Below, one piece after another: positions 34,672-48,637 of a DNA stretch of 64,000 bases. Origin of the DNA: a virus; IMG/VR virus record IMGVR_UViG_3300047476_001426, positions 32,001-96,000 of that record. One strand, given 5' to 3'. Below the pieces are notes generated by a model. That model ran no database searches. It saw only the letters and a list, made by a program, of their open reading frames with translations, and was not told the DNA's origin. How positions within the stretch are numbered: position 1 is the stretch's first letter; each line of letters opens with the position of its first letter. The position numbers were made by a program, and so were the translations under genes.

Positions 34672-36585
34672 TTAAACTTTTACAAATTGTTTAGTTAATT
34701 GTTTATTATAATTATGCAAAACCAAGTAATAATTACCGGCTGCGGATGATGTCATATCGATTTGTTTATATGCAATTTTCTCTGATGAATTGGTTGTAAC
34801 AGAACCGATGTTTTTCACCAATTGACCTCTTACATCATAAATTGAACCGTTCATTTCCATGTTTGGATTTGGGAATCTAATTTCAATTTCAAACCATCCA
34901 CTTGTTGGGTTTGGTCTTATTGATGCTGTAATCTCATCAATTGATTGGTCTGTAGGTGGTGCCATTTTATACATGATAACCGCAACACTACTAACCAAAT
35001 CAATATTTAAATGGTCACCCTTCTCATCTGATGCATCCATTAATTGTCTCACATAAATGTTACTTACAATATCATTACCACCAATTGGTGAGAATTTAAG
35101 TTTAAATGGTGTTGATTGACCTATTAAACCATCTTTCATCTGATTGTTCATCCCACCGAATCTAATTGTACCATTAGAAGCATCGTGAGTAACATATTGT
35201 AACCATGGACCACCATTAAAATTTGATATAATCTCCTCAAACTTAACTTTAGTTTTATCGTATTTCATTTCAAACTGTAAACCATAATTGTTATCACCAT
35301 TTGTGTTAACATTGAATGGTACATATAATGGTTGACTTCCTGATGCTGAAGTATTAGGTATTTCAACATCTAATTTACCTTTAAACACCGCCTTAGCAAC
35401 TAATACCCCCGATGAGTTCCATACTCTTGATGAATACGTTCTGTCTACGTCACCTTGAATAAAGTACTTAATGTTTACTGTTTTATTAACTAAACCAACA
35501 CTATCCGTGATAAAATTGGTTGCGGTTAAATGGTTTGGCCAATCATTCCATTGAGTTGAACCTAAAACTAAAGAATCATAAACACTCGCGTGGAAAGTTC
35601 TAATCATTGTTGTGGTATCTATCTTTTTCATACCACTTACGTTCGCGTAAATTAGATATGGGTCACCACCATCCAATTTTCCGTTTTGGTTCATATCACC
35701 AATAAGGTATGCCAAACCATTTTTTAAGTATTGTTGTCCAAATCCTTGGTTAACGTCTGTAATTGTGTATTCATCATATGTCTTTACAGCGTCTGATATT
35801 GTAACCGCGTAATCTCTGAAGACTTCCATACTATCTGCTGGAAATCTAACCAATAATTTATATTTGGTATTTTTATCTACATTGTTTAATGAGTAGTTAC
35901 CAGCGGTGTCACATAAAGAAGATGAAACAAATGTGCCTGTATTATACTTTGTACATATTACTGTTGGTCTTCTACCGGCCAATTTCATTGTTGGAGGTAA
36001 TTCAACAACACCACTAATCACCAAGTTACCCAAAAGTTCAAGGTGCATATCTTGTACATTTAAGATTGCGATGTTATCACCAATTGTAGAACCGTCATAC
36101 TTAAACATTCTTGCCCAGTTAATTTCAACACTGTCAGCATCAAAGTTTGATTCTACGTCATTAATAATAAATTTGTTATGTATTAAAAATGTGTCTTGTG
36201 TTATTTGAGAACCACTTGAAAGTACCAAGAAATTTCTTGCCACAGTATAGTTGGTATCACTTGTGTATGAATACAAACCTGTACCTGAACTGTAACTTGA
36301 ATATTTGTAATTGTTAAAGAATTTTATCGAAAGTGCTGGAGTCATGGTACTCACAGTTGGGTCAACAGTAGTTGATACGTGAGTAAAAAGTTGTTTCCTA
36401 TATTGGAAATCAACTTGGAATGTTCTCACATCAACCGCGGATGCTGGTGTGTATTTAAACACAACATCTAAAGTATCACCTCTTTTGATAGTTTTATACG
36501 CAACGGGGTTACCTATTTCAGGTGTTTGTGAAAACGCCATTGTCGTGACAAATAAAGTAATTAGGGATAAAATTATTTTTTTCAT
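34672..36585 (-). CDS. T9SS-type cargo protein with cohesin-like and dockerin-like domains
   Basis: Signal peptide; cohesin-like FQVDFQY and LQFEMKYD...GTIRFGG; GDMNQNGKLDGGD; C-terminal IRPNPTSG..IYDVRGQLV..IDM...GNYYL..KQFVK (T9SS type A CTD). Confidence 0.8.
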   Translation of the reverse strand: MKKIILSLITLFVTTMAFSQTPEIGNPVAYKTIKRGDTLDVVFKYTPASAVDVRTFQVDFQYRKQLFTHVSTTVDPTVSTMTPALSIKFFNNYKYSSYSSGTGLYSYTSDTNYTVARNFLVLSSGSQITQDTFLIHNKFIINDVESNFDADSVEINWARMFKYDGSTIGDNIAILNVQDMHLELLGNLVISGVVELPPTMKLAGRRPTVICTKYNTGTFVSSSLCDTAGNYSLNNVDKNTKYKLLVRFPADSMEVFRDYAVTISDAVKTYDEYTITDVNQGFGQQYLKNGLAYLIGDMNQNGKLDGGDPYLIYANVSGMKKIDTTTMIRTFHASVYDSLVLGSTQWNDWPNHLTATNFITDSVGLVNKTVNIKYFIQGDVDRTYSSRVWNSSGVLVAKAVFKGKLDVEIPNTSASGSQPLYVPFNVNTNGDNNYGLQFEMKYDKTKVKFEEIISNFNGGPWLQYVTHDASNGTIRFGGMNNQMKDGLIGQSTPFKLKFSPIGGNDIVSNIYVRQLMDASDEKGDHLNIDLVSSVAVIMYKMAPPTDQSIDEITASIRPNPTSGWFEIEIRFPNPNMEMNGSIYDVRGQLVKNIGSVTTNSSEKIAYKQIDMTSSAAGNYYLVLHNYNKQLTKQFVKV

Positions 36586-37079
36586 AGTATTAATTTGTTA
36601 ATTAAGGTTTGAGTTGTTTTCTTTAATGCCGAACTAGCAGATTGTTGATTGAATTTACCACCCTCATCAATCATAATAGTTGAGGTTGAAATTTCAGTGG
36701 ATTTACCCTCTGAGAATTCCTGTTTAATTTTTTTATCACCTTTATATAGGACACCTTTCATTCTTATAACGGTAGTTGTCTTGTCTTCGTGAAAAATACT
36801 AACCCCCGAGTTAGTGGTTACAATATCAAAAAATATGAGCTCGACTTTAATTTTATAGTCCGCCTTATTTTTATCTGTAATCAGAATTAAACTGTCCTGT
36901 TCGTTTATGATTTCTTCTATTATATTTTTTACACCAAAAGCCAAATTTTTATTTTCGGTAAACGGACCAATCTTAATGTTGTTGATTACTGTGTCAACAA
37001 CAATAGTTTGTGCGTTCAGATTGGAAAACCCAAATGATATTAAAAAAAATAGTAATATGATTGGCAGTCTTGTCATCAC
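36582..37079 (-). CDS. Secreted protein, CsgG/LpoB-like fold candidate
   Basis: Signal peptide; LAFGVKNIIEE...KADYKIKVELIFF pattern similar to 33036-33821. Confidence 0.45.
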   Translation of the reverse strand: MMTRLPIILLFFLISFGFSNLNAQTIVVDTVINNIKIGPFTENKNLAFGVKNIIEEIINEQDSLILITDKNKADYKIKVELIFFDIVTTNSGVSIFHEDKTTTVIRMKGVLYKGDKKIKQEFSEGKSTEISTSTIMIDEGGKFNQQSASSALKKTTQTLINKLIL

Positions 37080-37116
37080 AAAAAAGAAAAAAACGGGGCA
37101 CTGAGCCCCGTATTAA

Positions 37117-37371
37117 TTACTCAGATACTGAATCGTCTGATTTTTTCTTATGTGAGAACTTGTCTAAAGTATCTGCACCCATTCCAATGGCAGTAATTAC
37201 CATTACCGCATTTACCAATTCTTCTGATGGTTTAATGTCACCATGTGTAAAAGAGTTTGCCATCATGGTTCCGCAAAGGAAAAGTGCACCTAATAGTGCG
37301 ATTACCGGTTTGATTGAAGTTGACCCTCTTTCATCTTTGAATAGGTCAATAATCCATTTTTTAAAGTTCAT
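37117..37371 (-). CDS. Small two-TM membrane protein (holin-like)
   Basis: 84 aa, two hydrophobic segments, charged C-terminus. Confidence 0.5.
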   Translation of the reverse strand: MNFKKWIIDLFKDERGSTSIKPVIALLGALFLCGTMMANSFTHGDIKPSEELVNAVMVITAIGMGADTLDKFSHKKKSDDSVSE

Positions 37372-37492
37372 AGTTGTAATTTAGTTTAGTTTTATTATTT
37401 GGTTTATTATAAATACCTCGGCAATCGAGATTGTCATATATATTATTTTAAAAAAAATTTTAACTTTTCTTGTTTTTTCGAATACTTATTAG

Positions 37493-37500
37493 TATCTTTG
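37493..37500 (+). promoter_or_regulatory. Bacteroidota sigma70 -7 element driving tRNA cluster 1
   Basis: TATCTTTG, 30 nt upstream of leader ORF 1. Confidence 0.75.
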
Positions 37501-37530
37501 TAAAAGATTTCAAAAATTAAATAAATTTCG

Positions 37531-37620
37531 ATGATACGTTCAACACATACAATGTCGTTTACAATCTGTTCAAAATGGGCGGAGGTAGCTGATATTTGCA
37601 TGTCCCGAGGTGTCTTCTAA
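37531..37620 (+). CDS. Leader peptide 1 (MIRSTHTMSFTICSKWAEVADICMSRGVF)
   Basis: 29-codon ORF between promoter and terminator; its 3' end carries a perfect antiterminator strand. Confidence 0.75.
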   Translation: MIRSTHTMSFTICSKWAEVADICMSRGVF

Positions 37621-37647
37621 GTTGTTTAATTTTAAAAACGATAAAAG

Positions 37648-37677
37648 AAACCTCGGGAGAAATCTCGAGGTTTTTTT
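37648..37677 (+). terminator. Attenuator terminator 1
   Basis: AAACCTCGGGA-GAAA-TCTCGAGGTTT followed by TTTT. Confidence 0.85.
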
Positions 37678-37684
37678 GTTTTAT

Positions 37685-37754
37685 GGGCCTGATGTCAACG
37701 GCAGACCGTCTGATTTGCAATCAGAACGATTGGGTTCGATTCCCACAGTGTCCA
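37685..37754 (+). tRNA. tRNA-Ala(TGC), irregular acceptor stem
   Basis: TCTGA-TTTGCAA-TCAGA anticodon arm, GGTTCGATTCC T arm, G3:U70-like pair; bulge in acceptor stem. Confidence 0.65.
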
Positions 37755-37760
37755 CAAAGA

Positions 37761-37783
37761 TGTTCTTTGACATATTGGTTTAA
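37761..37783 (+). promoter_or_regulatory. boxA-like antitermination element, copy 1
   Basis: TGTTCTTTGACATATTGGTTTAA, identical to 40682-40704. Confidence 0.6.
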
Positions 37784-37786
37784 TTT

Positions 37787-37860
37787 GGTACCGTAGCTCA
37801 GTTGGTAGAGCACCAGACTGAAAATCTGGGTTGTCACTGGTTCAAATCCAGTCGGTACCA
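37787..37860 (+). tRNA. tRNA-Phe(GAA)
   Basis: Full cloverleaf; CCAGA-CTGAAAA-TCTGG. Confidence 0.93.
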
Positions 37861-37962
37861 CATAGTGTTGGCTTCAAGTCCCATTAGGGAAGTACACTTA
37901 AATAAAACATACACGGGGAAAGTGTTGACTGCAGAAACAGCGAGTACCAACGAAGGGGTAAT

Positions 37963-38036
37963 GTCTTCGTAGCTCAGTTGGTTAGAGCACCTCACTTTTA
38001 ATGAGGGAGTCACGCGTTCGAGTCGCGTCGGGGACA
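37963..38036 (+). tRNA. tRNA-Lys(TTT)
   Basis: Full cloverleaf; CCTCA-CTTTTAA-TGAGG. Confidence 0.93.
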
Positions 38037-38178
38037 CAAAGGTTGATTGGGGAATGATTATGTCTATAGTTCGAGAGTGGATACTGACTGACATAATCGG
38101 AGTTTGGAGGTATTCACCGTAGTAATGCCAATCGTAAAAGGAGATGTCCACTGAACCATCTTCTCCTTTCCTTGACTT

Positions 38179-38252
38179 AGTTCCTTAGCTCAGTTGGTTA
38201 GAGCATCTGCCTTACATGCAGAGGGTCGTTGGTTCGAATCCGACAGGGACTA
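38179..38252 (+). tRNA. tRNA-Val(TAC)
   Basis: Full cloverleaf; TCTGC-CTTACAT-GCAGA. Confidence 0.93.
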
Positions 38253-38318
38253 CAATAAACTAAAAATTGCATCAATAAACAAGGTTAGTTTATCGTGGCA
38301 AAAACAAGTTTAATAAAC

Positions 38319-38389
38319 ACGGGTGTGGTGAAAGGGTATCATACCGGTCTCCAAAACCGTTGTTGGGAGTTCGAATCTCTCCACCCGTG
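38319..38389 (+). tRNA. tRNA-Trp(CCA)
   Basis: ACGGGTG/CACCCGT acceptor; CGGT-CTCCAAA-ACCG. Confidence 0.88.
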
Positions 38390-38410
38390 CAAACTTTAAA
38401 AATAAAAACA

Positions 38411-38842
38411 ATGAACAATCAAATAGGAATCGATGCCGCAAAAATAAAATTTGAGGCTGAGAAAATGAAACTAAAAGAAGAAAGGGAACGAAGGATTAAA
38501 GAGTTTTGGGAAAACGGTATACCCAAATTAAATAATCCTGAAGACGTACCAACACTTCCAAGGGTGGATGAAAAAGAATGGAAAGAATACTATGTACCAA
38601 GATTGATTGATGCTGGTGCAATCCCTAAAAAAGATTTAATCCATGGTCAGATTTATATCGGTGAACATAGAAATACAACCATAGCAAGATGGAATCAGGA
38701 AACAAACAAATTCGACCACATGAGATATAAGTTTGGTTGGGCGAAAGATGATTGTAACCATTTTGAAGATGATGATGGATTCGCATTGTTTGTCCCAATT
38801 AGATTAGGAACACAAGAAGAATGGGATGAAAGAATTAAATAA
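38411..38842 (+). CDS. Hypothetical protein in the tRNA array
   Basis: ATG at 38411 after an A-rich leader; 143 aa. Confidence 0.65.
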   Translation: MNNQIGIDAAKIKFEAEKMKLKEERERRIKEFWENGIPKLNNPEDVPTLPRVDEKEWKEYYVPRLIDAGAIPKKDLIHGQIYIGEHRNTTIARWNQETNKFDHMRYKFGWAKDDCNHFEDDDGFALFVPIRLGTQEEWDERIK

Positions 38843-38847
38843 ATGAT

Positions 38848-38921
38848 GCTCTCGTAGTTCAATGGATTAGAACATTTCACTACGGATGAAAGGGTTGGGA
38901 GTTCGAGTCTCTCCGAGAGTA
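38848..38921 (+). tRNA. tRNA-Arg(ACG)
   Basis: TTTCA-CTACGGA-TGAAA; full cloverleaf. Confidence 0.9.
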
Positions 38922-38926
38922 CAATA

Positions 38927-38998
38927 GGGTCAGTTTGGTCATGGAGGCCGGTTAGTCTGCAAAACTAACGGAGTTGGTTCGATTCCAACATTGACCTC
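38927..38998 (+). tRNA. tRNA-Cys(GCA)
   Basis: GTTAGT-CTGCAAA-ACTAAC; T arm GTTGG-TTCGATT-CCAAC; weak D arm. Confidence 0.8.
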
Positions 38999-39053
38999 AA
39001 TATAAGGTCTGAACCTAATAGTGGGGGATTATTAGGTGTGGACCTTATAATAT

Positions 39054-39128
39054 GGTAGATATAGTTCAGTTGGTTAGAACGTCTGATTGTGGTTCAGAAG
39101 GTCGTCGGTTCGAATCCGATTATTTACC
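39054..39128 (+). tRNA. tRNA-His(GTG)
   Basis: TCTGA-TTGTGGT-TCAGA; encoded G-1:C73. Confidence 0.92.
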
Positions 39129-39135
39129 CAAACAT

Positions 39136-39212
39136 TGGAATATAGCTCAATTGGTTAGAGCATTCGTCTGATACGCGAAAGGTTATAGGTTCGATTCCTA
39201 TTATTCCAACCA
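39136..39212 (+). tRNA. tRNA-Ile(GAT)
   Basis: TTCGT-CTGATAC-GCGAA; encoded CCA. Confidence 0.93.
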
Positions 39213-39217
39213 AACAT

Positions 39218-39291
39218 TGCGGGGTGGACTGGAGAGGTTCCAGCTCAGTCTCATAAGCTGAATGACGTGGGTTCGATTCCCACCCCCGCAA
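39218..39291 (+). tRNA. tRNA-Met(CAT), fMet-like body
   Basis: TGCGGGG/CCCCGCA acceptor; TCAGT-CTCATAA-GCTGA (lacks the three G-C pairs of classical initiators). Confidence 0.8.
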
Positions 39292-39460
39292 CTTTTTCAT
39301 TGAACATTTTGAAATATGGAATTTCATGTTTATATTTTAATTGTTCGTTTGTTCTTTGAAATAAAAATATGGATATAACTAGGGTCGAGCCAGATTTTGC
39401 CACGGTTATGTCAAGGGTTGGAAGGACCAGAGCTGGCCGTGACTACTCCAACCCACTATT

Positions 39461-39534
39461 GCCTCCTTAGCTCAGTTGGCCAGAGCGCCTCACTTGTAAT
39501 GAGGATGTCGTTGGTTCGAATCCGACAGGAGGCT
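39461..39534 (+). tRNA. tRNA-Thr(TGT)
   Basis: CCTCA-CTTGTAA-TGAGG. Confidence 0.93.
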
Positions 39535-39631
39535 CTGCAGGGTTTTCGGTGTAAAGGGTGTCAAAACCCACCTGAGCAAAACCTAACATATGTCCACTAT
39601 GTGTTAGGGTAATGTGGATAAAACCGAAATT

Positions 39632-39703
39632 GGTCTCATAGTTAAACGGCTATAATGCAGCCCTGTCACGGCTGAGTTCGGGGTTCGATTCCCCGTGGGA
39701 CCG
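39632..39703 (+). tRNA. tRNA-Asp(GTC)
   Basis: CAGCC-CTGTCAC-GGCTG. Confidence 0.93.
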
Positions 39704-39994
39704 CAATGAGTAAGAGATACTCAGGAAGATTGGCTACATTCTGTAAAAAAGTAGTGGTGGTAAAAAAATCCTCGACCTTAATGAGGTATCGATTTGGATA
39801 AAACGGTAGCAAGACTCTGCACCGCCGACGTATAGAGTTGACAGGTTTTTATGTGGTAAGACACTAATGAAAAAGACCCAATGAAGGAGGACGCTTTTAA
39901 GCAATATGTTCAGAGAGCGTTGGGGGATATGGTTCTCGAAACAGTGAGAGAAACCCGTTAAAATCTACTTATTGTAATCTCAGATAAGGAAATT

Positions 39995-40080
39995 GGAGAG
40001 TTGGCAGAGCTGGTTGAACGCGGCGGTCTTGAAAACCGTTTTACTGAAAGGTAACGGGGGTTCGAATCCCTCACTCTCCG
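39995..40080 (+). tRNA. tRNA-Ser(TGA)
   Basis: GCGGT-CTTGAAA-ACCGT with a long variable arm. Confidence 0.92.
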
Positions 40081-40088
40081 CAAATTAT

Positions 40089-40163
40089 GGCCCTTTCGTC
40101 TATCGGTTAGGACAGGTCCCTTTCACGGACCAGAGACGGGTTCGATTCCCGTAGGGGCTACCA
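40089..40163 (+). tRNA. tRNA-Glu(TTC)
   Basis: GGTCC-CTTTCAC-GGACC; encoded CCA. Confidence 0.92.
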
Positions 40164-40179
40164 AACAAAAAAAACCAAT

Positions 40180-40422
40180 ATGTTAGAGAAAATTTTAGAA
40201 CAATATGAGAGTGAGGAAATCTTAATTGCCGATGGATTTGATAATGCGGTTATAGGTATTGATGAATCCACAATGAGATTAATTTATTCCGTTGAGAAGT
40301 GTATAAACATCCTAATGGAACAAGGAATGGATATGACAGAAGCGGTTGAATACTTTGATTTCAACGTCTCAGGTTCATATGTTGGTGAGAAGACTCCAAT
40401 ATGGTGTGATGATTTATTTTAA
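40180..40422 (+). CDS. Small acidic hypothetical phage protein
   Basis: 80 aa; ADGFDNAVIG...YSVEKC..EAVEYFDFN..GSYVGE.TP pattern common in phages. Confidence 0.7.
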   Translation: MLEKILEQYESEEILIADGFDNAVIGIDESTMRLIYSVEKCINILMEQGMDMTEAVEYFDFNVSGSYVGEKTPIWCDDLF

Positions 40423-40462
40423 AAAAAAATTTAAAATTATTTGTAAATAAAAAAACTTTTCG

Positions 40463-40470
40463 TATCTTTG
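40463..40470 (+). promoter_or_regulatory. Bacteroidota sigma70 -7 element driving tRNA cluster 2
   Basis: TATCTTTG with upstream TTTG (-33 element). Confidence 0.8.
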
Positions 40471-40487
40471 TGATAGTTATTTAAGAA

Positions 40488-40592
40488 ATGATGAACTTGG
40501 TATACATACAACAACCGTTGAACAATCCACTTAGTGGTAATGGGAGAGGTATATATTTATGTGACCCAAGTTCGGAGTTAGTCAAATTATAA
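40488..40592 (+). CDS. Leader peptide 2 (MMNLVYIQQPLNNPLSGNGRGIYLCDPSSELVKL)
   Basis: 34-codon ORF between promoter and terminator; carries antiterminator strand AAGTTCGG. Confidence 0.75.
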   Translation: MMNLVYIQQPLNNPLSGNGRGIYLCDPSSELVKL

Positions 40593-40616
40593 GGATAAGA
40601 TAACCTACTATAGATG

Positions 40617-40649
40617 ACCCGAACTTAAATAAAAAAGTTCGGGTTTTTT
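40617..40649 (+). terminator. Attenuator terminator 2
   Basis: ACCCGAACTT-loop-AAGTTCGGGT followed by TTTTT. Confidence 0.85.
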
Positions 40650-40681
40650 GTTTTTAGAGTTTTTTGTTTTTATATTTGAAG

Positions 40682-40704
40682 TGTTCTTTGACATATTGGT
40701 TTAA
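40682..40704 (+). promoter_or_regulatory. boxA-like antitermination element, copy 2
   Basis: Exact 23-nt repeat of 37761-37783. Confidence 0.6.
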
Positions 40705-40710
40705 GTAGTT

Positions 40711-40795
40711 GCCGAGGTGATGGAATGGTAGACATGAGGGACTTAAAATCCCTTGGACAGTAATGTTCGTGTGGGTTCGACTCCCATCCTCGGTA
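40711..40795 (+). tRNA. tRNA-Leu(TAA)
   Basis: AGGGA-CTTAAAA-TCCCT, long variable arm. Confidence 0.92.
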
Positions 40796-40800
40796 CAAAA

Positions 40801-40999
40801 GAAACTTCCTTACAGAAGGTGATAATGCTTCACTGAAAGGACTACTGACTTCCAAGTGGGTCGCAACCACAATCGGAAGGTACGACACGGCTCAGTAGAC
40901 TCTGTAACGGACCCTGCTCTATGGTGCACACATAACAGGTGATGGGGAACAAACCATCGGTAAAATCTAAACCCACGGTGAGCGTGGAAGGAATGTTTC
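40801..40999 (+). ncRNA. Unclassified multibranch structured RNA
   Basis: End-to-end stem GAAAC.TTCCTT/AAGGAA.GTTTC; internal TTACAGA/TCTGTAA, CTACTGA/TCAGTAG and several hairpins. Confidence 0.55.
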
Positions 41000-41009
41000 T
41001 TTTTTTAAT

Positions 41010-41083
41010 GTCTCCGTAGCTCAGCTGGATAGAGCAACAGCCTTCTAAGCTGTGGGTCATTGGTTCGAATCCAATCGGGGATA
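41010..41083 (+). tRNA. tRNA-Arg(TCT)
   Basis: ACAGC-CTTCTAA-GCTGT. Confidence 0.93.
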
Positions 41084-41085
41084 CT

Positions 41086-41225
41086 AAGATAGTGGTCACT
41101 CTCACAATGAAAGTCGACAAAGTAGTTGTGAGGTTCATAGTGTTCAGCACCCTCGGCCAGTGCACTGATAAAACTCAGAAGAAGCCGTTAAGATTGGAGC
41201 GAGACGGGTACTCCATCACTATCTT
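41086..41225 (+). ncRNA. Unclassified structured RNA
   Basis: Closing stem AAGATAGTG/CACTATCTT; internal CTCACAA/TTGTGAG and TGGAG/CTCCA hairpins. Confidence 0.5.
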
Positions 41226-41230
41226 TTTTT

Positions 41231-41305
41231 CGGGATGTAGCGTAGTCCGGTTATCGCGCATGGTTTGGGACCATGAGGTCGCAGGTTCGAATCCTGCTAT
41301 CCCGA
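41231..41305 (+). tRNA. tRNA-Pro(TGG)
   Basis: CATGG-TTTGGGA-CCATG. Confidence 0.93.
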
Positions 41306-41355
41306 CAAAGTCCGAGAGTAATTAACTCGGTACCTGAGAGGTTCGAAACTCTCGA

Positions 41356-41449
41356 TTGATTATGGTGTAATGGCGCACAGCAGAACGGAGTACGGGCATC
41401 GGCCTCGAAAGGGGACGCAGGATTAAGGTTCGAATCCTTATTAATCAGC
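41356..41449 (+). ncRNA. tRNA-like RNA with anticodon arm replaced
   Basis: Acceptor TTGATTA/TAATCAG, D arm GTGT/GCAC, T arm TAAGG-TTCGAAT-CCTTA; about 45-nt non-canonical middle. Confidence 0.6.
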
Positions 41450-41651
41450 AAGCCGTCTTTTTTCATACTCGCACCGATGAGGGGGACTGTTGAGACGTTA
41501 AAGTAACAGTGTAAAGCAATCGGGGGTTTATCCAAGTTACCCACAAACTGGGGTCGTTTTCCTTACCGAAGGAGTTTCCCGACCAATAAACTGAAACTCA
41601 AACGATAGAAAAAAGTAGGGACACATGGGGAAGCTTTAACCCGTCCCGAAA

Positions 41652-41750
41652 TAGTCAGGTGAGTTGGTACTCACGGAGGGTCGTTAAATGGAAAGATACC
41701 ACATCGACGAGGTGGTAAATGCCGAACAGGTTCGAGTCCTGTCCTGACTA
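41652..41750 (+). ncRNA. tRNA-like RNA, TAGTCAGG class, copy 1
   Basis: TAGTCAGG/CCTGACTA stem, GTGAG/CTCAC arm, ACAGG-TTCGAGT-CCTGT; no 7-nt anticodon loop. Confidence 0.6.
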
Positions 41751-41823
41751 CTAAGTAGAGAGAACCGTGAGTTTGCGGATGGAAACAACCATAAAACGAG
41801 CATACGTCATACTCTACTTAACA

Positions 41824-41918
41824 TAGTCAGGTTTGGTACAAGGTCGGTTCGAGTCCGATGGAAGGTCATGGATGTCGGGTAGCTCCCTGTAGAGAGGTTC
41901 GATTCCTCTCCTGACTAC
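41824..41918 (+). ncRNA. tRNA-like RNA, TAGTCAGG class, copy 2 (two T arms)
   Basis: Same terminal stem; TCGG-TTCGAGT-CCGA and AGAGG-TTCGATT-CCTCT. Confidence 0.6.
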
Positions 41919-41995
41919 GATACGGTGTTGACCTGTCCGCGACCGAAATGTATACAAAACAGTGGAGGGTGACAAATAGGGAGAGACCTGTACAT

Positions 41996-42136
41996 GATTA
42001 AGTGGCGAAATTGGTTTACGCGCTGGTCAGTACCCAAAAGAGTGTTGAATGGGGAAAACTGGTGGACATACTACAGACACGAGTAGTAGGAGATTATGTC
42101 TTTAAATCCGTACAGGTTCGAATCCTGTCTTAATCT
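41996..42136 (+). ncRNA. tRNA-like RNA with a long insertion in place of the anticodon arm
   Basis: GATTAAG/CTTAATC acceptor, Leu-type D arm GCGAAATTGGTTTACGC, ACAGG-TTCGAAT-CCTGT. Confidence 0.6.
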
Positions 42137-42263
42137 CGAATGTGGTTCGATTCCACTCGTTAACTGAGGTTTTGGAAAGTAGTCCAATGGAGGTACACAC
42201 TCCACTTAGAAATAAGGTAGAATGATGGAGAACAGTTTGGAGGTGTGGGAAGACACACAAAAT

Positions 42264-42335
42264 TCCTCGATAGCTCAGCGGTAGAGCAAACGGCTGTTAA
42301 CCGTTAGGTCCCAAGTTCGAATCTTGGTCGGGGAG
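42264..42335 (+). tRNA. tRNA-Asn(GTT)
   Basis: AACGG-CTGTTAA-CCGTT. Confidence 0.93.
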
Positions 42336-42411
42336 CAAAAAAATCGTTGATGGAAACATCGAAGGTGTACAATACTAGTAACACCGTAGGTTTGGCGATG
42401 TCCTACAATAG

Positions 42412-42492
42412 GCCTTGGTGGTGGAATGGTAGACACGCTAGTCTTAGGAACTAGTGGCGAAAGTCGTGTCGGTTCGAGTCCGACCTGAGGTA
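42412..42492 (+). tRNA. tRNA-Leu(TAG)
   Basis: CTAGT-CTTAGGA-ACTAG. Confidence 0.92.
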
Positions 42493-42497
42493 CAAAT

Positions 42498-42601
42498 TCA
42501 TTCTTAGTGTTATGAGGTAAAACACTTTGACTCTCACATCGCCTGGTTAGTACTGACCCGAATGTGAGACGAGTAAGTTGGTTCGAATCCAACAGAATGG
42601 A
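42498..42601 (+). ncRNA. tRNA-like RNA with an extended hairpin replacing the anticodon arm
   Basis: TCATTCT/AGAATGG acceptor, GTGTT/AACAC D arm, TCTCACAT/ATGTGAGA hairpin, GTTGG-TTCGAAT-CCAAC. Confidence 0.65.
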
Positions 42602-42663
42602 CAACCCGTCGAAAGCTCATGTTGGTCCGAGTGAGATGGAAACGCGGATATCGGACCCGTTAT

Positions 42664-42745
42664 TGGAAGGTGGGTGAGTGGTTAAAACCGGCAGACTGTA
42701 AATCTGCTCCCATTGGGTACGGGGGTTCGAATCCCTCCCTTCCAA
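42664..42745 (+). tRNA. tRNA-Tyr(GTA)
   Basis: GCAGA-CTGTAAA-TCTGC, variable arm. Confidence 0.92.
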
Positions 42746-42758
42746 CAAAAATATCATT

Positions 42759-43310
42759 ATGAAAAAAAATAAAATAATTTCAGAGATGTTATCAAACATC
42801 ACACCTGAAATGAAAGAAAAATGGAAACAAGAGAGAATTGAACGTAAAAACAAATTAACACCCGAATATCAACTCGGATATTATGTTGGTTTGGAAATTG
42901 TTCACAGATATCTACCAACTCTTTCTACTGATATGATACAATCTCGCACCGTGATTGAAGTTTCTGAAGAAGATACTTTAGAAAATGAAAGATTGGATAC
43001 CGAATGGTATACAACAACAAAACACGGTGGAGAATGGAATGGTGTTGATGAAAACGGCAATAAAGAGAAATGGGATTTATACCATCAACACAATAAAATG
43101 TTGGGAAGGAAATACCTACCAAATCCATTGGAGTGTTACATGAGTTTGTTAAATGTTCAAAACATGGATGAATTTAAAAAAGGTTTAAGGTTCGCATTGT
43201 GGGATTGTGATATGTGTTCATACAATATTGAACCTGAAAACATAAAAATTTACGATGATGAACAAGCCATGTTTACTATTATCGAATTTCAATTAGATTC
43301 AGTGGTGTAG
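42759..43310 (+). CDS. Hypothetical protein in the tRNA array
   Basis: 183-aa ORF; its TAG stop overlaps the 5' end of tRNA-Ile(TAT). Confidence 0.65.
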   Translation: MKKNKIISEMLSNITPEMKEKWKQERIERKNKLTPEYQLGYYVGLEIVHRYLPTLSTDMIQSRTVIEVSEEDTLENERLDTEWYTTTKHGGEWNGVDENGNKEKWDLYHQHNKMLGRKYLPNPLECYMSLLNVQNMDEFKKGLRFALWDCDMCSYNIEPENIKIYDDEQAMFTIIEFQLDSVV

Positions 43311-43377
43311 CTCAATTGGTGAGAGCAGGACTCTTATACAGTCAAGGTTATGGGTTCAAATCCCGTCATCACTACCA
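43301..43377 (+). tRNA. tRNA-Ile(TAT)
   Basis: GACT-CTTATAC-AGTC anticodon arm; encoded CCA. Confidence 0.85.
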
Positions 43378-43428
43378 ATTATCGGTTAAATAACCGATAA
43401 AATAAATTATCGTCGATTTGAACGATAT

Positions 43429-43502
43429 GGTCCCTTAGCTCAGTTGGTTAGAGCAACTGACTCATAATCAGTAGGCCCACGGTTCAAGCCCGTGAGGGAC
43501 CA
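43429..43502 (+). tRNA. tRNA-Ile2 or Met (CAT)
   Basis: ACTGA-CTCATAA-TCAGT; body resembles bacterial lysidine-type Ile2. Confidence 0.85.
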
Positions 43503-43527
43503 CAGAGATATTTATATATAAAAAACT

Positions 43528-43980
43528 ATGGGAATAGAATTAAAAAAGAAAAAACAACTTATCGAAAGATTAAATAAAAGGTTGTTATCGGAAGCCGAAA
43601 TGGAATGTCCAAAACCAACTCAAGATTTGGAATTAAACACCAAAAACAGAGATAAATCAATAAAGGCAGATTATATTAAATATGGTCCACTTAATATTGA
43701 TGAACCGGGAGATTATTGGGAAATGGTTGCATCCGATTGGGATACAACTGTTGAGGCAGCAAAAAAATCACTATGTGGTAATTGTGTTGCTTTTGATATT
43801 TCACCAAGAATGGATGAATGTATGCCGGGTTCTGTTTCTGATGACAGCGGTAGATTAGGTTACTGTTGGATGCATCATTTTAAATGTCATTCAGCAAGAA
43901 CATGTAAAACATGGGCTAAAGGTGGACCTATTACCGAAGACACGGTTTCATACGAATGGCAAGAAAAAAATAAAGAATAA
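43528..43980 (+). CDS. Cys-rich hypothetical phage protein
   Basis: 150 aa; CGNCVAF, GYCWMHHFKCHSARTC; preceded by TATTTATA. Confidence 0.7.
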   Translation: MGIELKKKKQLIERLNKRLLSEAEMECPKPTQDLELNTKNRDKSIKADYIKYGPLNIDEPGDYWEMVASDWDTTVEAAKKSLCGNCVAFDISPRMDECMPGSVSDDSGRLGYCWMHHFKCHSARTCKTWAKGGPITEDTVSYEWQEKNKE

Positions 43981-44043
43981 ATGTAGTCGTACCCTTAACT
44001 CCAAAACTCACAACTGAGTCTCTGTTATGGGAAGGCTACTCCC

Positions 44044-44116
44044 GCGGAAATAGCTCAGTTGGTAGAGCATCACCTTGCCAAGGTGAGGGTCGCGAGTTCG
44101 AGTCTCGTTTTCTGCT
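44044..44116 (+). tRNA. tRNA-Gly(GCC)
   Basis: TCACC-TTGCCAA-GGTGA. Confidence 0.93.
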
Positions 44117-44185
44117 CTAAGTAAACCTTAAAAAGGGCCCTTCCGTTGGTACGACAACGGCTTGTTGAGCCCGGGTTTACTTTTT

Positions 44186-44257
44186 GCGAATATCGTATAA
44201 TGGTCATTACTTCAGACTTCCAATCTGAAGATGTCAGTTCGATTCTGACTATTCGCT
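44186..44257 (+). tRNA. tRNA-Gly(TCC)
   Basis: TCAGA-CTTCCAA-TCTGA. Confidence 0.92.
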
Positions 44258-44310
44258 CAATCATTATAGTGGTCACTAAATCGGGTTAGTGAAAATCTAT
44301 TTGATATTAT

Positions 44311-44381
44311 TGTCCTGTGGTGTAACGGCAGCACATCTGGTTTTGGTCCAGAGAATTGAGGTTCGAATCCTTGCGGGACAA
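44311..44381 (+). tRNA. tRNA-Gln(TTG)
   Basis: TCTGG-TTTTGGT-CCAGA. Confidence 0.92.
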
Positions 44382-44439
44382 CAAAATTTTTAAATTATGA
44401 AAAAAGAAAGAGACTTCTATTAGGTAACACTAATAGAAT

Positions 44440-44709
44440 ATGTCAAAACACAGAAACAGAGCTAAGCTCAAAAACGCAGAATGTGGTAGGGATTACCACC
44501 TAATTTCTTTAAACGAATGGTATCCCCTTTATTGGGATGAGGGGTACAACTTCTATCCACGATGGAGAAGAGGTTACAAAAATCCCAACAAGACAATTCC
44601 AATCTTTAAAGTACGTGAGTACAGAACTTGGAAGTACAACAGAAAAAACCAATATGTTGAGAGGAAAGTTACCCAAGTTGGTGAAGGGGACGGTTTGCTA
44701 AACCGTTAG
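44440..44709 (+). CDS. Small basic hypothetical protein (3' end overlaps tRNA-Ser)
   Basis: Arg/Lys/Trp-rich ORF ending in YRTWKYNRKNQY-type motif common in phages. Confidence 0.5.
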   Translation: MSKHRNRAKLKNAECGRDYHLISLNEWYPLYWDEGYNFYPRWRRGYKNPNKTIPIFKVREYRTWKYNRKNQYVERKVTQVGEGDGLLNR

Positions 44710-44750
44710 GTCGAGTAATCGGCGCGAGGGTTCGAGCCCCTCACTTTCCG
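44663..44750 (+). tRNA. tRNA-Ser(GCT)
   Basis: ACGGT-TTGCTAA-ACCGT, long variable arm. Confidence 0.92.
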
Positions 44751-44781
44751 CAAAATACTTATAAGTAGAATAATATGTAAT

Positions 44782-45243
44782 ATGACAAAATTTAGAACAT
44801 TGTACGGAACACCCATAACTGACGTTATTGGTTACATCAAAGATTATTTGGTTGATAAAACTGATGTTGAGATATTAATTGGTTCGGATTCACAATCATT
44901 TAGTAATTCAAAAACAGTTTACGGGGTGGTTATTGCTCTTTACACAACAGGTAAAGGTGCACACGTACTATGTACTAAAGATATCACACCATTTGAAAAA
45001 GACACATCAAGTAGATTAATGACCGAAGTTTGGAAAGCTGTTGAAGTTGCCGAACATTTGAGAAATAATGGTTTACCAAAAGCCACATGGATTGATATAG
45101 ATTTAAATCCCGACCCAAGATATAAATCAAACAAAGTTTTGAGACAAGCAGTTGGTTTGGTTGAAGGTATGGGATACAAGGTAAGATACAAACACGCAGG
45201 TGCTATGGTGACTTACAGTGCAAACCATTTGGTAAGAATTTAA
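44782..45243 (+). CDS. YkuK-like RNase H-fold protein
   Basis: ILIGSDSQ, RLMTEV, WIDIDLN..SN..GLVEGMGY pattern. Confidence 0.7.
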   Translation: MTKFRTLYGTPITDVIGYIKDYLVDKTDVEILIGSDSQSFSNSKTVYGVVIALYTTGKGAHVLCTKDITPFEKDTSSRLMTEVWKAVEVAEHLRNNGLPKATWIDIDLNPDPRYKSNKVLRQAVGLVEGMGYKVRYKHAGAMVTYSANHLVRI

Positions 45244-45310
45244 AAAAAAGATAAGAGGGCTTGTTTTTTTAAAAAAGTCCTTTTATCTTTGTAATGTAAT
45301 ATTTATAGTC

Positions 45311-45652
45311 ATGAGAAAAAACTAGATTAACAGACTTGTAGTCGTAACCCGTAAAGACTTAAAACCCGGGTACCAAATTGCACAATCGGGACATGCAATC
45401 TCTCAGTTCATTTTAGAACACCCCGAATTGTCGAAACGATGGAACAACAGTTATCTGATTTCATTATCCATCGATTCAGAAGAAAAATTACAACAATTAC
45501 TTTTTAGGTTAGAAGATTCAGGAATACCTGTATCTCATTTCATTGAACCCGATATCGGGAATCAATTAACATCTATTTGCTTTCTCGAAACCGAGGAAAC
45601 AAAAAGATTCACATCATCATTGCCTTTATCCTTAAAGGAATATAATAAATAA
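45311..45652 (+). CDS. Pth2-like peptidyl-tRNA hydrolase with in-frame TAG at codon 5
   Basis: MRKN*INRLVVVTRKDLKPGYQIAQSGHA...EPDIGNQLTSI; VVVTRKDL..G..IAQ..HA is the Pth2 N-terminal catalytic motif. Confidence 0.75.
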
Positions 45653-45672
45653 ACAATTTAATCTTAAAAATT

Positions 45673-45927
45673 ATGAAGTAGATTAACAAAAAATGTGAAA
45701 TTATTTTTCACTTCAACAAGAAACACTTGGAAAATCCGACGATTCCAATGTGGGTTGTGAAATGTCGGGGCGACACTTATTATGTTCATCATGTTGATGT
45801 CTCACCGGGTGTGGGATTCTCAACAAAAGAAACTCCCGATAACCCTCATACCAAAGGGAGTATAAAATTCAAAGCAAATTTGGAAATTGAGGAAAACAAT
45901 AACATAATAACAGCTAAAATTTTTTAA
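45673..45927 (+). CDS. Hypothetical protein with in-frame TAG at codon 3
   Basis: MK*INKKCEIIFHFNKKHLENPTIPMWVVK...; A-rich leader before the ATG; frame continuous with ORF 45727-45927. Confidence 0.65.
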
Positions 45928-45929
45928 AA

Positions 45930-46268
45930 ATGAAAAATACAAAACACAACCCAACAATGATGATTAAATCATCTTTCTCGAACAAGATTCATAATCTTTT
46001 AGGTATCAAACACAAACCATATTCAAAAGAGTGGTTTGAAGGTATGAAACAAAGAAGAGAATTGACTAATGAAGAAAAGTCTAAACTTTTTGATGAAATT
46101 ATGAAGGTGTATGTTGAAACATCCGACGAATTGGTAAACTATCGTAAAGATAGGAGATTAAAAAAATGGGTCAACAAAAAACGTTTAGAAAGAGGATATG
46201 TCCCAAAGAAAAAAACAAAAAAAGAAGATTATGAAAAAAATCTTCAAAATGATTTGGAGATATCTTAA
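45930..46268 (+). CDS. Basic hypothetical protein
   Basis: 112-aa ORF coupled to the previous gene. Confidence 0.55.
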   Translation: MKNTKHNPTMMIKSSFSNKIHNLLGIKHKPYSKEWFEGMKQRRELTNEEKSKLFDEIMKVYVETSDELVNYRKDRRLKKWVNKKRLERGYVPKKKTKKEDYEKNLQNDLEIS

Positions 46269-46385
46269 TTAATATCTACTTTTGAATTGTGATTGAAAAG
46301 TGACAGTGACAAATAGACCAAGTGGGGCACACGTAAAATTGTATCAGTCGAAAGTCGAGGTGATAGACCACCATCAATCACAAAC

Positions 46386-46457
46386 GGTCTCGTGGTGTAG
46401 CGGTAACATTACGGTCTCTAAAACCGATAGTCACGGGTTCAAATCCCGTCGGGACCA
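46386..46457 (+). tRNA. Amber suppressor tRNA (anticodon CTA)
   Basis: GGTCTCG/CGGGACC acceptor; CGGT-CTCTAAA-ACCG anticodon arm (CTA at 46418-46420); ACGGG-TTCAAAT-CCCGT. Confidence 0.88.
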
Positions 46458-46564
46458 CAACAAAAAAAAATATTTTTAAAAAAAATTACAAAAATACTTG
46501 TTTTTTAAAAAAAGTTTTGTATCTTTGTACCACAACAATAAATAATACATTTAATACGACATTT

Positions 46565-48637
46565 ATGACAACAAGAAATTTAGTTGCATTTCAAAAGAAT
46601 TTGGTGTGTTCACCAAACGACGGTCAAGATAACAGAATCGCTGTAGCAACCGTACAATCCCACCTAATGCAATGGGGTTACATGTTAGACGAAGACGCTT
46701 TCTTCGCATTAGCCAAATCAGATTTATCGTTTATTCAAAACTTCAATGATGAAGTGTTGAATCATTTGAAAAATGTAATGGGAGGTAAACGTAATTACCA
46801 ACCTTTATATAAAAACTTCCCACAAGAAGTGATGGTTATGTCCGACTTCGAATTGTACATGAATGCAATCATTCATTATTGGAGTAACGGTCAATGGGAA
46901 CCATCTACCCATACTTACGAAAAAGAAATCAAGTTTGAGAAAATCAAATACAACTTGATTAAGTATGGTACTTCGGAAAGATTCTCAAAAATCTTCACTG
47001 ACTTAGTGTCAATAAACACATCGTTAACTCCTCAAGACCTTGAGATTGTTAAATGGTTTGTTGAGAGCGGTGAAACATTAGTCTTCCCTGACACAATTCC
47101 ATTCAAAGAGAATTTGTGTACATTGGCGGCAATGGGAATCTCGGGATTACCAGTTAAGACTTCAACCGATGTGTTAAGAATCGCCGTTCATCTTTCAGGT
47201 GGTGATATTAGTTTACCAAAAGTTCCTCAAAAGGAAATTAGGGCAAGTGTATGGACCACCCAAAGGATTACGAATCCTGAAAGAGAAAAGTTTAAATTCA
47301 AGAAATTCTCTCGTAAAGAGAGAAAATACATCTTGGGTTTACTGGAGAACACAAACTGTGACCCACGTGAAATGGTTTTAAGAGACCAACGTTGGGTACG
47401 TTTAGGTGAAATATTACACCCGGGTGAATATAAAAACCAATTCCCTAAGTCTTTCGAGGCCTTCAACAAAATCCGAAACGAGAAAGTTAAATCTTGGTTC
47501 GCACTTGTTAACGAAGGTTTCAATAAAGGATTAGAGAATGGTTTGAGAGTTTTGTCTCAAAGACCTGGTGAGTTCTCTCGTAGAATGGATTGGTTGGTTC
47601 GTACATATCCAAAAGATATTGAACTGATTATGAAGTTCTTCGGAGAAGCGGTAAAAGGTACATCAAACAAAGTATTGTTTGAAGTTTACACTCACTTTGA
47701 AAATCGTACTGAACCTATGGATAATAGGTCTATTATGATAAAAGGGGCGAGAAAACGTACCACATTACCATCACTACCAGCAATCCCTAAAGAGATTGTG
47801 GAAACCATCCACTCTAAATTATTCGAAACACTTAGAGATAAGTTTTCGGTAATGGAATCTTTAGGTAACTGTTGGATTGATGAGGAATTGAAAAAAATTC
47901 CTTTACCAACCAACATGAGAAGTATGAACTTCTCAACTAAACCAACAATCAGAGGTCAAAGAGTTCCACTCGATAACCCTGATGCAAAAGTTATCAGACC
48001 GTTTGTTCATTGGATGGATAAACGTGGTAGCGAAGACTTGGATTTAAGTGTTACGTTTGTTGGTGAAAAGGTGTCAGAAGTACTATCTTTCAGTAACTTG
48101 AGAGTTGGTAAATCTTGTCACTCAGGGGATGTGAGACATAGACAGGGTCCTTGTGCCGAGTACATCGACATTGATATTCAAGATGCATTGAAAAGAGGAT
48201 TCAAATATGCAGTCATTGATGTGAGAAACTTCAATGGAGGTACTTTGAGTTCACTTGAAACGTCTTTTGGTATCATGGAACGAGAACACCCTGAATCAAA
48301 CAAAACATGGTTACCTGAAACAATTTCAAATTGTCAATCATTGGAATCAGCGTCGTCAAACACATTGATTTCTATTATTGACCTTGAAACTAAGGAGTAC
48401 ATCATGTTGGATATTGATTCATCAGGTTTCGTTACCGCAAGAGGTGACTTCAAACACACTCTTAAAGTGATTCAACAATACGCTGAATTACCAAAAGTAA
48501 GTGTTTATGACCTTATTCTTCTACACGTAGAAGGTCGAGGAAAACAAGTTACCCTTGATGAAAATGTCGACGTACACTTCAAGTACGAGGACTTCTGTTA
48601 CTCTTATGAGGAAACAGGAAAATTAATGGGTGTGTAA
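46565..48637 (+). CDS. Large alpha-helical protein with C-terminal TerD-like domain (Ro/TROVE-like candidate)
   Basis: ATG at 46565 after a TATCTTTG promoter (46520); EDLDLSV..HSGDV..AEYIDID TerD-type motifs; N-terminal helical region unassigned. Confidence 0.6.
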   Translation: MTTRNLVAFQKNLVCSPNDGQDNRIAVATVQSHLMQWGYMLDEDAFFALAKSDLSFIQNFNDEVLNHLKNVMGGKRNYQPLYKNFPQEVMVMSDFELYMNAIIHYWSNGQWEPSTHTYEKEIKFEKIKYNLIKYGTSERFSKIFTDLVSINTSLTPQDLEIVKWFVESGETLVFPDTIPFKENLCTLAAMGISGLPVKTSTDVLRIAVHLSGGDISLPKVPQKEIRASVWTTQRITNPEREKFKFKKFSRKERKYILGLLENTNCDPREMVLRDQRWVRLGEILHPGEYKNQFPKSFEAFNKIRNEKVKSWFALVNEGFNKGLENGLRVLSQRPGEFSRRMDWLVRTYPKDIELIMKFFGEAVKGTSNKVLFEVYTHFENRTEPMDNRSIMIKGARKRTTLPSLPAIPKEIVETIHSKLFETLRDKFSVMESLGNCWIDEELKKIPLPTNMRSMNFSTKPTIRGQRVPLDNPDAKVIRPFVHWMDKRGSEDLDLSVTFVGEKVSEVLSFSNLRVGKSCHSGDVRHRQGPCAEYIDIDIQDALKRGFKYAVIDVRNFNGGTLSSLETSFGIMEREHPESNKTWLPETISNCQSLESASSNTLISIIDLETKEYIMLDIDSSGFVTARGDFKHTLKVIQQYAELPKVSVYDLILLHVEGRGKQVTLDENVDVHFKYEDFCYSYEETGKLMGV

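Follow-up and report, generated by a model that had tools for sequence, protein, structure and literature searches.

In attenuators of the trp and his type, a short open reading frame (ORF) close to the promoter is followed by an intrinsic terminator and a competing antiterminator strand, and the position of the ribosome on the leader decides which of the two structures forms. In the pheST attenuator, cognate codons of the pheM leader control Phe-tRNA synthetase, a component of the decoding apparatus, and T-box RNAs bind one uncharged tRNA directly, with neither ribosome nor ORF, to switch between terminator and antiterminator. To our knowledge, the regulation of phage tRNA genes is largely unknown; codon-usage compensation, decay of host tRNAs, and escape from anticodon nucleases have been proposed as reasons for carrying them, and a regulatory handle has been lacking. 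Here we describe two leader units, each placed ahead of a tRNA array, in a 64,000-nt stretch of phage DNA (the window; positions 32,001 to 96,000 of IMG/VR virus record IMGVR_UViG_3300047476_001426) that belongs to a freshwater phage genome of 136 kb. We propose, with a probability of roughly 0.78, that both units are ribosome-mediated transcription attenuators that sense how the codons read by their own downstream tRNAs are decoded. An initial annotation of the window had suggested a codon-matched leader-peptide attenuator in front of the first array, and this suggestion was supported by conservation in relatives, by a reciprocal second unit, by the tracking of codon content and the covariation of antiterminators in 28 leader families, by a positional bias of the matching codons, and by a tRNA-Ala gene that abuts the terminator U-run.

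Layout and codon content of the two units

Coordinates are those of the window, and features lie on its plus strand unless noted. Promoter P1 (37470-37500) consists of TTG, a 20-nt spacer, and TATCTTTG at 37493-37500, and is of the Bacteroidota -33/-7 type; full matches to TTG-N18-21-TAnnTTTG, of which it is one, are few in the 136-kb genome, and the box of P1 is kept in relatives. Leader ORF 1 (37531-37620) starts with an ATG about 30 nt past P1 and comprises 29 codons and a stop. Downstream of it, a terminator scan predicted, from the letters only, an intrinsic terminator made of a hairpin and a U-run that together span 37644-37677: the 5' arm (segment 3, ACCTCGGGA, 37650-37658) is joined by a GAAA loop to segment 4 (37663-37677), which is formed by the 3' arm (37663-37671, with one G-U pair) and a U-run of seven T (37671-37677). 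Segment 2, the candidate antiterminator strand TCCCGAGGT (37603-37611), occupies codons 25-27 and is the exact 9-nt reverse complement of the 5' arm, which is common to antiterminator and terminator; the two predicted structures exclude each other, and the antiterminator has been maintained in evolution. Segment 2 ends 6 nt 5' of the stop codon, a geometry in which a ribosome at the end of the ORF would mask it and a stalled ribosome would leave it free. A possible segment 1, or anti-antiterminator (37533-37541), appeared in the full leader's minimum-free-energy fold only, and its predicted pairing with 37607-37614 is weak and poorly kept in relatives. Every statement of the initial annotation about this layout holds, from promoter, 29-codon ORF, and hairpin to the tRNA genes behind them, and the perfect complementarity that it claimed for 37603-37611 is exact.

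The first gene behind the terminator is a tRNA-Ala(TGC)-like gene (37685-37754), which was detected by the Rfam tRNA model only (31.8 bits against a gathering score of 29); the tRNA-Ala(TGC) at the same place in relatives is canonical. The start of this gene lies 8 nt past the U-run (in relatives, no more than about 13 nt), which leaves no room for a promoter of its own, and the gene should therefore be expressible by read-through only. Because the upstream gene (37117-37371) runs on the strand opposite to unit 1, the unit-1 terminator can be reached only by transcripts from P1. A small hairpin (37415-37431, minus strand) lies in the 5' region of this divergent gene and contains the ACCTCGG found in the terminator arm; the 64-kb window has seven ACCTCGR sites, and four of them fall within 37415-37671.

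Array 1 (37787-40163) contains 13 tRNAs called by ARAGORN, namely Phe, Lys, Val, Trp, Arg-ACG, Cys, His, Ile-GAT, Met, Thr, Asp, Ser-TGA, and Glu, and tRNA-Ala is the fourteenth. The initial annotation held that each of these 14 tRNAs has a cognate codon in the leader, and a codon count confirmed this: 27 of the 29 codons are read by array-1 tRNAs, and 14 of 14 tRNAs are represented. It was also correct that Arg is written only as CGN and Ser only as TCN, that Leu, Asn, Pro, Gln, and Tyr are absent, and that ATA and GGT are the off-set codons. We computed the probability of such a match against genome codon usage, which was taken from 102 long ORFs and places 60% of codons in set 1. Under this model, at least 27 matching codons of 29 are expected with P = 1.1e-4 and coverage of all 14 tRNAs with P = 1.7e-4, and none of 400,000 random ORFs equaled leader 1 in both codon count and tRNA coverage; the match is thus improbable by chance.

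A second unit of the same build (40441-40651), which was absent from the initial annotation, precedes tRNA array 2. Its promoter P2 (40441-40470) again consists of TTG, a spacer, and TATCTTTG, and is followed by leader ORF 2 (40488-40592, 34 codons) and a predicted terminator (40616-40651) with arms at 40616-40626 and 40635-40645 and a T-run. Thus, in both units a short ORF lies close behind a promoter and upstream of the genes that would be regulated, and a predicted terminator separates the leader ORF from these genes. The putative antiterminator strand of unit 2 (segment 2, 40568-40575, codons 27-30) is an 8-nt complement of 40619-40626 and ends 14 nt 5' of the stop codon, and a predicted anti-antiterminator (segment 1, 40493-40500, codons 2-4) is an exact 8-nt complement of 40566-40573; in the L004 group of relatives, both partners at one position of the latter pairing differ from those in the window. 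Array 2 (40711-44751) carries Leu-TAA, Arg-TCT, Pro, Asn, Leu-TAG, Tyr, Ile-TAT, Met, Gly-GCC, Gly-TCC, Gln, and Ser-GCT with interspersed small ORFs.

Array-2 tRNAs read 27 of the 34 codons of leader 2, including 23 of the first 24, and each of the 11 tRNA classes has a codon in it. The chance probability of 27 matches in 34 codons is P = 5e-6, and with full tRNA coverage required, no random ORF of 400,000 reached this match. The codon contents of the leaders mirror each other: of the 29 codons of leader 1, 27 belong to set 1 and 5 to set 2, and of the 34 codons of leader 2, 27 belong to set 2 and 9 to set 1. This reciprocity extends to isoacceptors, with CGN, TCN, and ATY in leader 1 and AGA, AGT, and ATA in leader 2, and every one of the 20 amino acids occurs in at least one of the two leaders. 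In either leader, the off-set codons can be explained because they lie in the pairing segments. The genome's tRNAs are all contained in arrays 1 and 2; a CTA-anticodon tRNA (46386-46458; amber suppressor type, labeled Pyl by ARAGORN) is situated outside both gated arrays, behind a separate TATCTTTG promoter (45261-45291) and two ORFs.

Conservation in relatives and across 28 leader families

Against deposited phage records, blastn of 37000-40200 returned tRNA cross-hits only and no relative. Relatives were taken from DNA-pattern scans of IMG/VR, in which unit 1 was represented by 15 distinct variants and unit 2 by 11, on freshwater phage contigs of 18-310 kb. Both leader ORFs stay open in these relatives and are conserved as coding sequence. 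In particular, the variable columns at the three codon positions number 9, 9, and 15 in leader 1 (13 variants) and 9, 11, and 18 in leader 2 (11 variants), indels within the ORFs are of 6 nt only in leader 1 and of 3 nt only in leader 2, and variability is 38% in the ORFs compared with 47-87% in the 5' untranslated region and the spacer past the stop. The predicted antiterminators were also retained, with 96.6% of the aligned cells paired in 13 relatives for unit 1 and 95% in the 11 variants of unit 2. In the L001/L009 lineage, a G to A change in the 5' arm is accompanied by a C to T change in the leader that is synonymous for Ser, so that a C-G pair became U-A and the 9-bp antiterminator was kept. 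Alignment of homologous loci thus agreed with the proposed unit, in that the leader ORF was kept as coding sequence and the antiterminator via a compensatory change.

Two relatives that have lost the array, L016 and L017, have also lost the antiterminator segment, which was deleted between two GAGGT repeats, and the U-run. Nearly all tRNA genes are gone from these two phages (L016, 2225-2413), where a decayed leader 1 is followed by a pseudo-tRNA, and the conserved motif described in the next section now stands ahead of a protein gene. Downstream of the tRNA arrays, two related phages carry a tmRNA (L017:8020-8415 and L018:13556-13955), and the genome of the window has none. In four others (L007, L012, L020, and L022), an extra conserved tRNA-like element of about 70 nt lies between tRNA-Ala and that same motif; it has a T-arm and an encoded CCA-like end and is not called by ARAGORN.

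Further phages were collected via the conserved motif behind the terminator, and a catalogue was built in which each unit consists of a terminator at most 300 nt upstream of a tRNA and the longest ATG-initiated ORF of 18-50 codons that ends at most 100 nt before the terminator; codon content, promoter, and antiterminator were not used in building it. The 51 distinct units of the catalogue fall into 28 families, with less than 45% identity between families, and come from diverse phages; an ATG-to-stop frame is present in all 28 families, and many of the arrays are cut by the ends of their loci. The mean codon match of a leader with its own array was 0.556, compared with 0.394 +/- 0.017 after permutation, and the maximum in 200,000 permutations was 0.475 (P<5e-6). 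For 12 of the 28 arrays, the own leader ranks first of the 28. The link between leader composition and array is visible by eye; for example, arrays for Asp, Glu, Leu, Val, and Ala, or for Pro, Gln, Tyr, Thr, Gly, and Lys, are preceded by leaders rich in the same residues. Thus, the expectation that leader codon sets track the downstream tRNA content, which follows from the reading in the initial annotation, was borne out over 28 families, and the codons of both leaders and of these families correspond to the product that would be regulated.

A candidate antiterminator was likewise recovered across families. In 20 of the 28 families, at least 6 nt of the leader form an exact complement of the 5' arm of the family's own terminator, and the stems differ between families; 16 of the 28 are individually significant at P<0.05 against shuffles, with a combined Fisher P = 3.6e-21. 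This complement keeps a constant place upstream of the stop (median distance, 10 nt) and of the arm (39 nt). Where a stalled ribosome would free segment 2, the own-array match is 0.57, as opposed to 0.43 at or after segment 2 (Fisher P = 0.0016; paired Wilcoxon P = 0.006). A -7 box was found at most 90 nt upstream of the ORF in 17 of the 28 families.

A boxA-type motif ahead of each array

A 21-nt motif occurs in only two copies in the genome, one before each array: copy 1 (37763-37783) lies between the terminator with its tRNA-Ala and the rest of array 1, and copy 2 (40684-40704) lies ahead of array 2. The motif is letter-perfect in many otherwise diverged phages, and in a scan of bacterial genomes its 16-nt core was found mostly in Bacteroidota. 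In the five rRNA operons that we checked, the core is located in the 16S-23S spacer, after tRNA-Ile and tRNA-Ala and 87-213 nt before the 23S gene; operons with the core ahead of 23S were seen in Pedobacter, Flavihumibacter, Niabella, and Deminuibacter. A variant of the core occurs about 145 nt before the 16S gene in two of the five operons, namely those with upstream sequence. In rRNA operons, boxA stands before 16S and before 23S, and it is necessary and sufficient for assembly of the antitermination complex (PMC10250234). Because the core and its variant occupy both of these boxA positions, we read the motif as boxA; in letters and placement, it is a boxA of the Bacteroidota rRNA-operon type, identical or nearly identical to the elements that precede 23S and 16S in the host phylum. 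The boxA of Escherichia coli resembles it as well. The phage block of tRNA-Ala(TGC) followed by boxA also has the same order as the rRNA spacer of the host. We considered a promoter function for the motif and rejected it, as it fits neither the sigma-70 nor the Bacteroidota -7 consensus and equals the boxA of the host rRNA spacer.

By analogy with rRNA operons, boxA probably loads Nus factors and renders the polymerase that has read through the terminator resistant to termination over a long untranslated array. The tRNAs for the Gly, Gln, and Ser-AGY codons of leader 2 lie 3.3-4 kb downstream, which fits one long transcript. Complements of the boxA region are present at 40175-40189, 39897-39915, and 44649-44664, and the first of these, directly past the last tRNA of array 1, gives the best boxA duplex in 9 kb (-24.8 kcal/mol). 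An rRNA-like leader-trailer helix at this site was not established, since 40175-40189 overlaps with the start of a conserved ORF (80 aa) and is missing wherever this ORF is missing.

The promoters, boxA, and a neighboring protein with a type IX secretion sorting domain point to Bacteroidota as the host of the phage. This protein, of 637 aa (34672-36585, minus strand), bears the sorting domain (Por_Secre_tail) at its C terminus. Pfam gave names to just 2 of the 10 neighboring ORFs. Array 1 includes an ORF of 143 aa (38411-38842), and an RNase H-like ORF (44782-45243) is placed in array 2.

Proposed mechanism, alternatives, and comparison with known systems

We propose the following sequence of events. 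Host RNA polymerase would start at P1 or P2 and transcribe a short ORF in which each downstream tRNA is represented by about one codon. When decoding is fast, the ribosome at the end of the ORF would cover segment 2, segments 3 and 4 would fold, and transcription would stop before the array. When a tRNA is scarce, uncharged, or cleaved, the ribosome would stall upstream and segment 2 would be free to pair with the 5' arm of the terminator; with this antiterminator formed, the polymerase would read through into tRNA-Ala, boxA, and the array in unit 1, and boxA would then probably load the host Nus complex as in rRNA operons, so that 2.4-4 kb of untranslated array could be transcribed to its end. 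From the features described above, we infer the translation of the leaders, termination at the hairpins, the stalling switch, the action of boxA, and the natural trigger.

Fold predictions are in part consistent with these steps. Leader-1 RNA folds far better than shuffled sequences (z = -6.0). In the nascent RNA of unit 1 up to the terminator loop, the antiterminator was predicted to form (37600-37661, -24.4 kcal/mol, compared with -16.6 for the terminator hairpin); with the ribosome footprint at the stop codon masked, the terminator alone can form, and the full-length optimum combines a long leader hairpin with the terminator. Unit 2 has the full set of 1:2, 2:3, and 3:4 pairings: 40493-40500 was predicted to pair with segment 2 in the untranslated nascent RNA, and when the early codons are covered by a ribosome, segment 2 would pair with the 5' arm instead. 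With regard to RNA data, one RNA-library contig, which comes from a relative, spans 37601-37831 and runs through the terminator, tRNA-Ala, and boxA as far as tRNA-Phe; this is a weak hint of read-through, with DNA carry-over as an alternative source. The metatranscriptome contigs at the locus are mostly tRNA cross-matches from other organisms, and such contigs cannot show where an RNA starts or ends, so that they do not bear on termination at 37675. The freshwater-1 RNA motif of Rfam (40903-40965; 72.5 bits, at the gathering score), which lies between tRNA-Leu and tRNA-Arg of array 2, is covered exactly by RNA-library contigs at high contig depth.

Several observations weigh against attenuation by a stalled ribosome. 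In full-length folds, the terminator is the more stable state by about 4 kcal/mol, also when a stalled ribosome is assumed; such a switch could therefore operate only kinetically, in the manner of known attenuators. Each tRNA is sampled by one to few codons, compared with the codon runs of trp, his, and leu leaders, and it is doubtful how sensitive such a leader is to a partial shortage. Segment 2 of unit 2, 14 nt from the stop, would be covered only marginally by a terminating ribosome. In relatives, the codon match is incomplete: in some variants of leader 1, codons 2-4 or the last codon encode Asn, Gln, or Leu or read AGA, and TCN or ACG codons occur in some variants of leader 2. Covariation within families is thin, with one compensated pair and six of nine pairs invariant in unit 1 and no compensated pair in unit 2, and the case therefore rests on the test across families. 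In that test, a clear antiterminator is missing from 8 of the 28 families, the match is not above expectation in several families that have large arrays, and the families, having been collected via the boxA motif and two leader patterns, may share (deep) ancestry. Finally, a promoter-like box (40648-40678; TTG, 20 nt, TATATTTG) lies between terminator 2 and boxA 2; judged by its letters, it may bypass attenuator 2 and allow basal transcription of array 2, in which case gating would be partial. A TAnnTTTG box in this position is present in all unit-2 variants and in 7 of the 28 families and is absent from unit 1.

This same box following terminator 2, together with the conservation of the peptides within a family, would suit an alternative in which the small ORFs were independent micro-genes with leaky terminators and the arrays were constitutive, through read-through or through promoters behind the terminators; the codon match would then have some other purpose, such as that of a translated reporter or sink of tRNA function. 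We consider this explanation unlikely. Between families the peptides are unrelated, yet their composition tracks the array, and a free-standing gene has no need of the complement of the 5' arm that stands at a fixed place in 20 of 28 families. The abutment of tRNA-Ala on the U-run, and the concentration of matching codons upstream of segment 2, also argue against it.

A second explanation, which we regard as quite improbable, is that a factor, such as uncharged tRNA in a T-box-like manner or a protein of phage or host, reads the leader directly as a structured RNA switch, and that the ORF is incidental. The strong fold of leader 1 and the nucleotide-level invariance of parts of leader 2 are in accordance with such a switch. 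However, the third-position variation, the restriction to in-frame indels, and the ATG-to-stop frame in 28 of 28 families indicate coding sequence; specifier sites for 10-14 different tRNAs in one RNA are implausible, and the tracking of codon sets depends on the reading frame. In addition, an Rfam search to an E value of 1 in 36500-47500 found no T-box or riboswitch and no Trp, His, Leu, Thr, or Phe leader. Chance, in the form of an AT-rich intergenic ORF beside an ordinary terminator and a post-hoc split of the tRNAs into two sets, is highly improbable, because although the initial split followed sight of the data and short ORFs are common (163 ORFs of at least 25 aa in 14.5 kb), the second terminator and second boxA define the split independently of codons, the second leader is an independent replicate, and the conservation and 28-family tests contradict it.

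We therefore retain leader-peptide attenuation as the preferred reading of both units. Beyond the single genome, we think it somewhat probable that such units are modular decoding sensors of Bacteroidota phages, in which tRNA operons are split, each part is preceded by an isoacceptor-specific leader and then by boxA, and tRNA sets are made on demand. The demand could arise when host tRNAs are scarce, uncharged, or destroyed, for example, by a tRNA-targeting defence or by the phage's own shut-off of the host. A leader that samples every served codon would constitute a direct feedback loop on decoding capacity, and the tRNA shortage that opens the attenuator would be the very shortage that the phage evolved to answer, which makes the question of why phages carry tRNAs testable. 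If true, this would be the first attenuation system in which the sensed tRNA is itself the product, and it would extend leader-peptide attenuation to a stable RNA product, to an isoacceptor design with one codon per tRNA, and to Bacteroidota phages; the leaders would represent a natural, re-programmable sensor of single-tRNA availability. A full-text literature search, with most subscription papers outside its reach, found no description of leader-peptide attenuation of tRNA genes.

Compared with described systems, both units have the anatomy by which leader-peptide attenuators are recognized, so that a type of control known from amino-acid genes would here be placed on tRNA genes. The leaders of amino-acid operons (trpL, hisL, leuL, pheL, thrL, and ilvL) share this anatomy, and the closest likeness is to the multivalent thrL and ilvL, in which more than one amino acid is sensed. 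Unlike these cellular leaders, the units described here are borne by phages, in Bacteroidota, and would gate tRNAs rather than biosynthetic enzymes; they sample 10-14 tRNAs with about one codon each, in place of runs for one to three amino acids, and they tell isoacceptor sets apart (CGN from AGR, TCN from AGY, and ATY from ATA). The pheST attenuator with its pheM leader differs from them in its single amino acid, its protein product, and its cellular operon. The T-box has in common with them that the status of tRNA is turned into a terminator/antiterminator switch ahead of genes of the translation apparatus, and the difference is that the phage leader ORFs show a coding signature, with no T-box match at the locus. 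In the rRNA operons, where boxA recruits the antitermination complex of NusB/NusE, NusA, NusG, and SuhB, the 16-nt core is identical and follows tRNA-Ala(TGC), as it does in the phage; unlike its rRNA counterpart, however, the phage boxA heads tRNA arrays and appears downstream of a putative attenuator, an arrangement that suggests a two-step logic in which transcription is first decided upon and then committed to.

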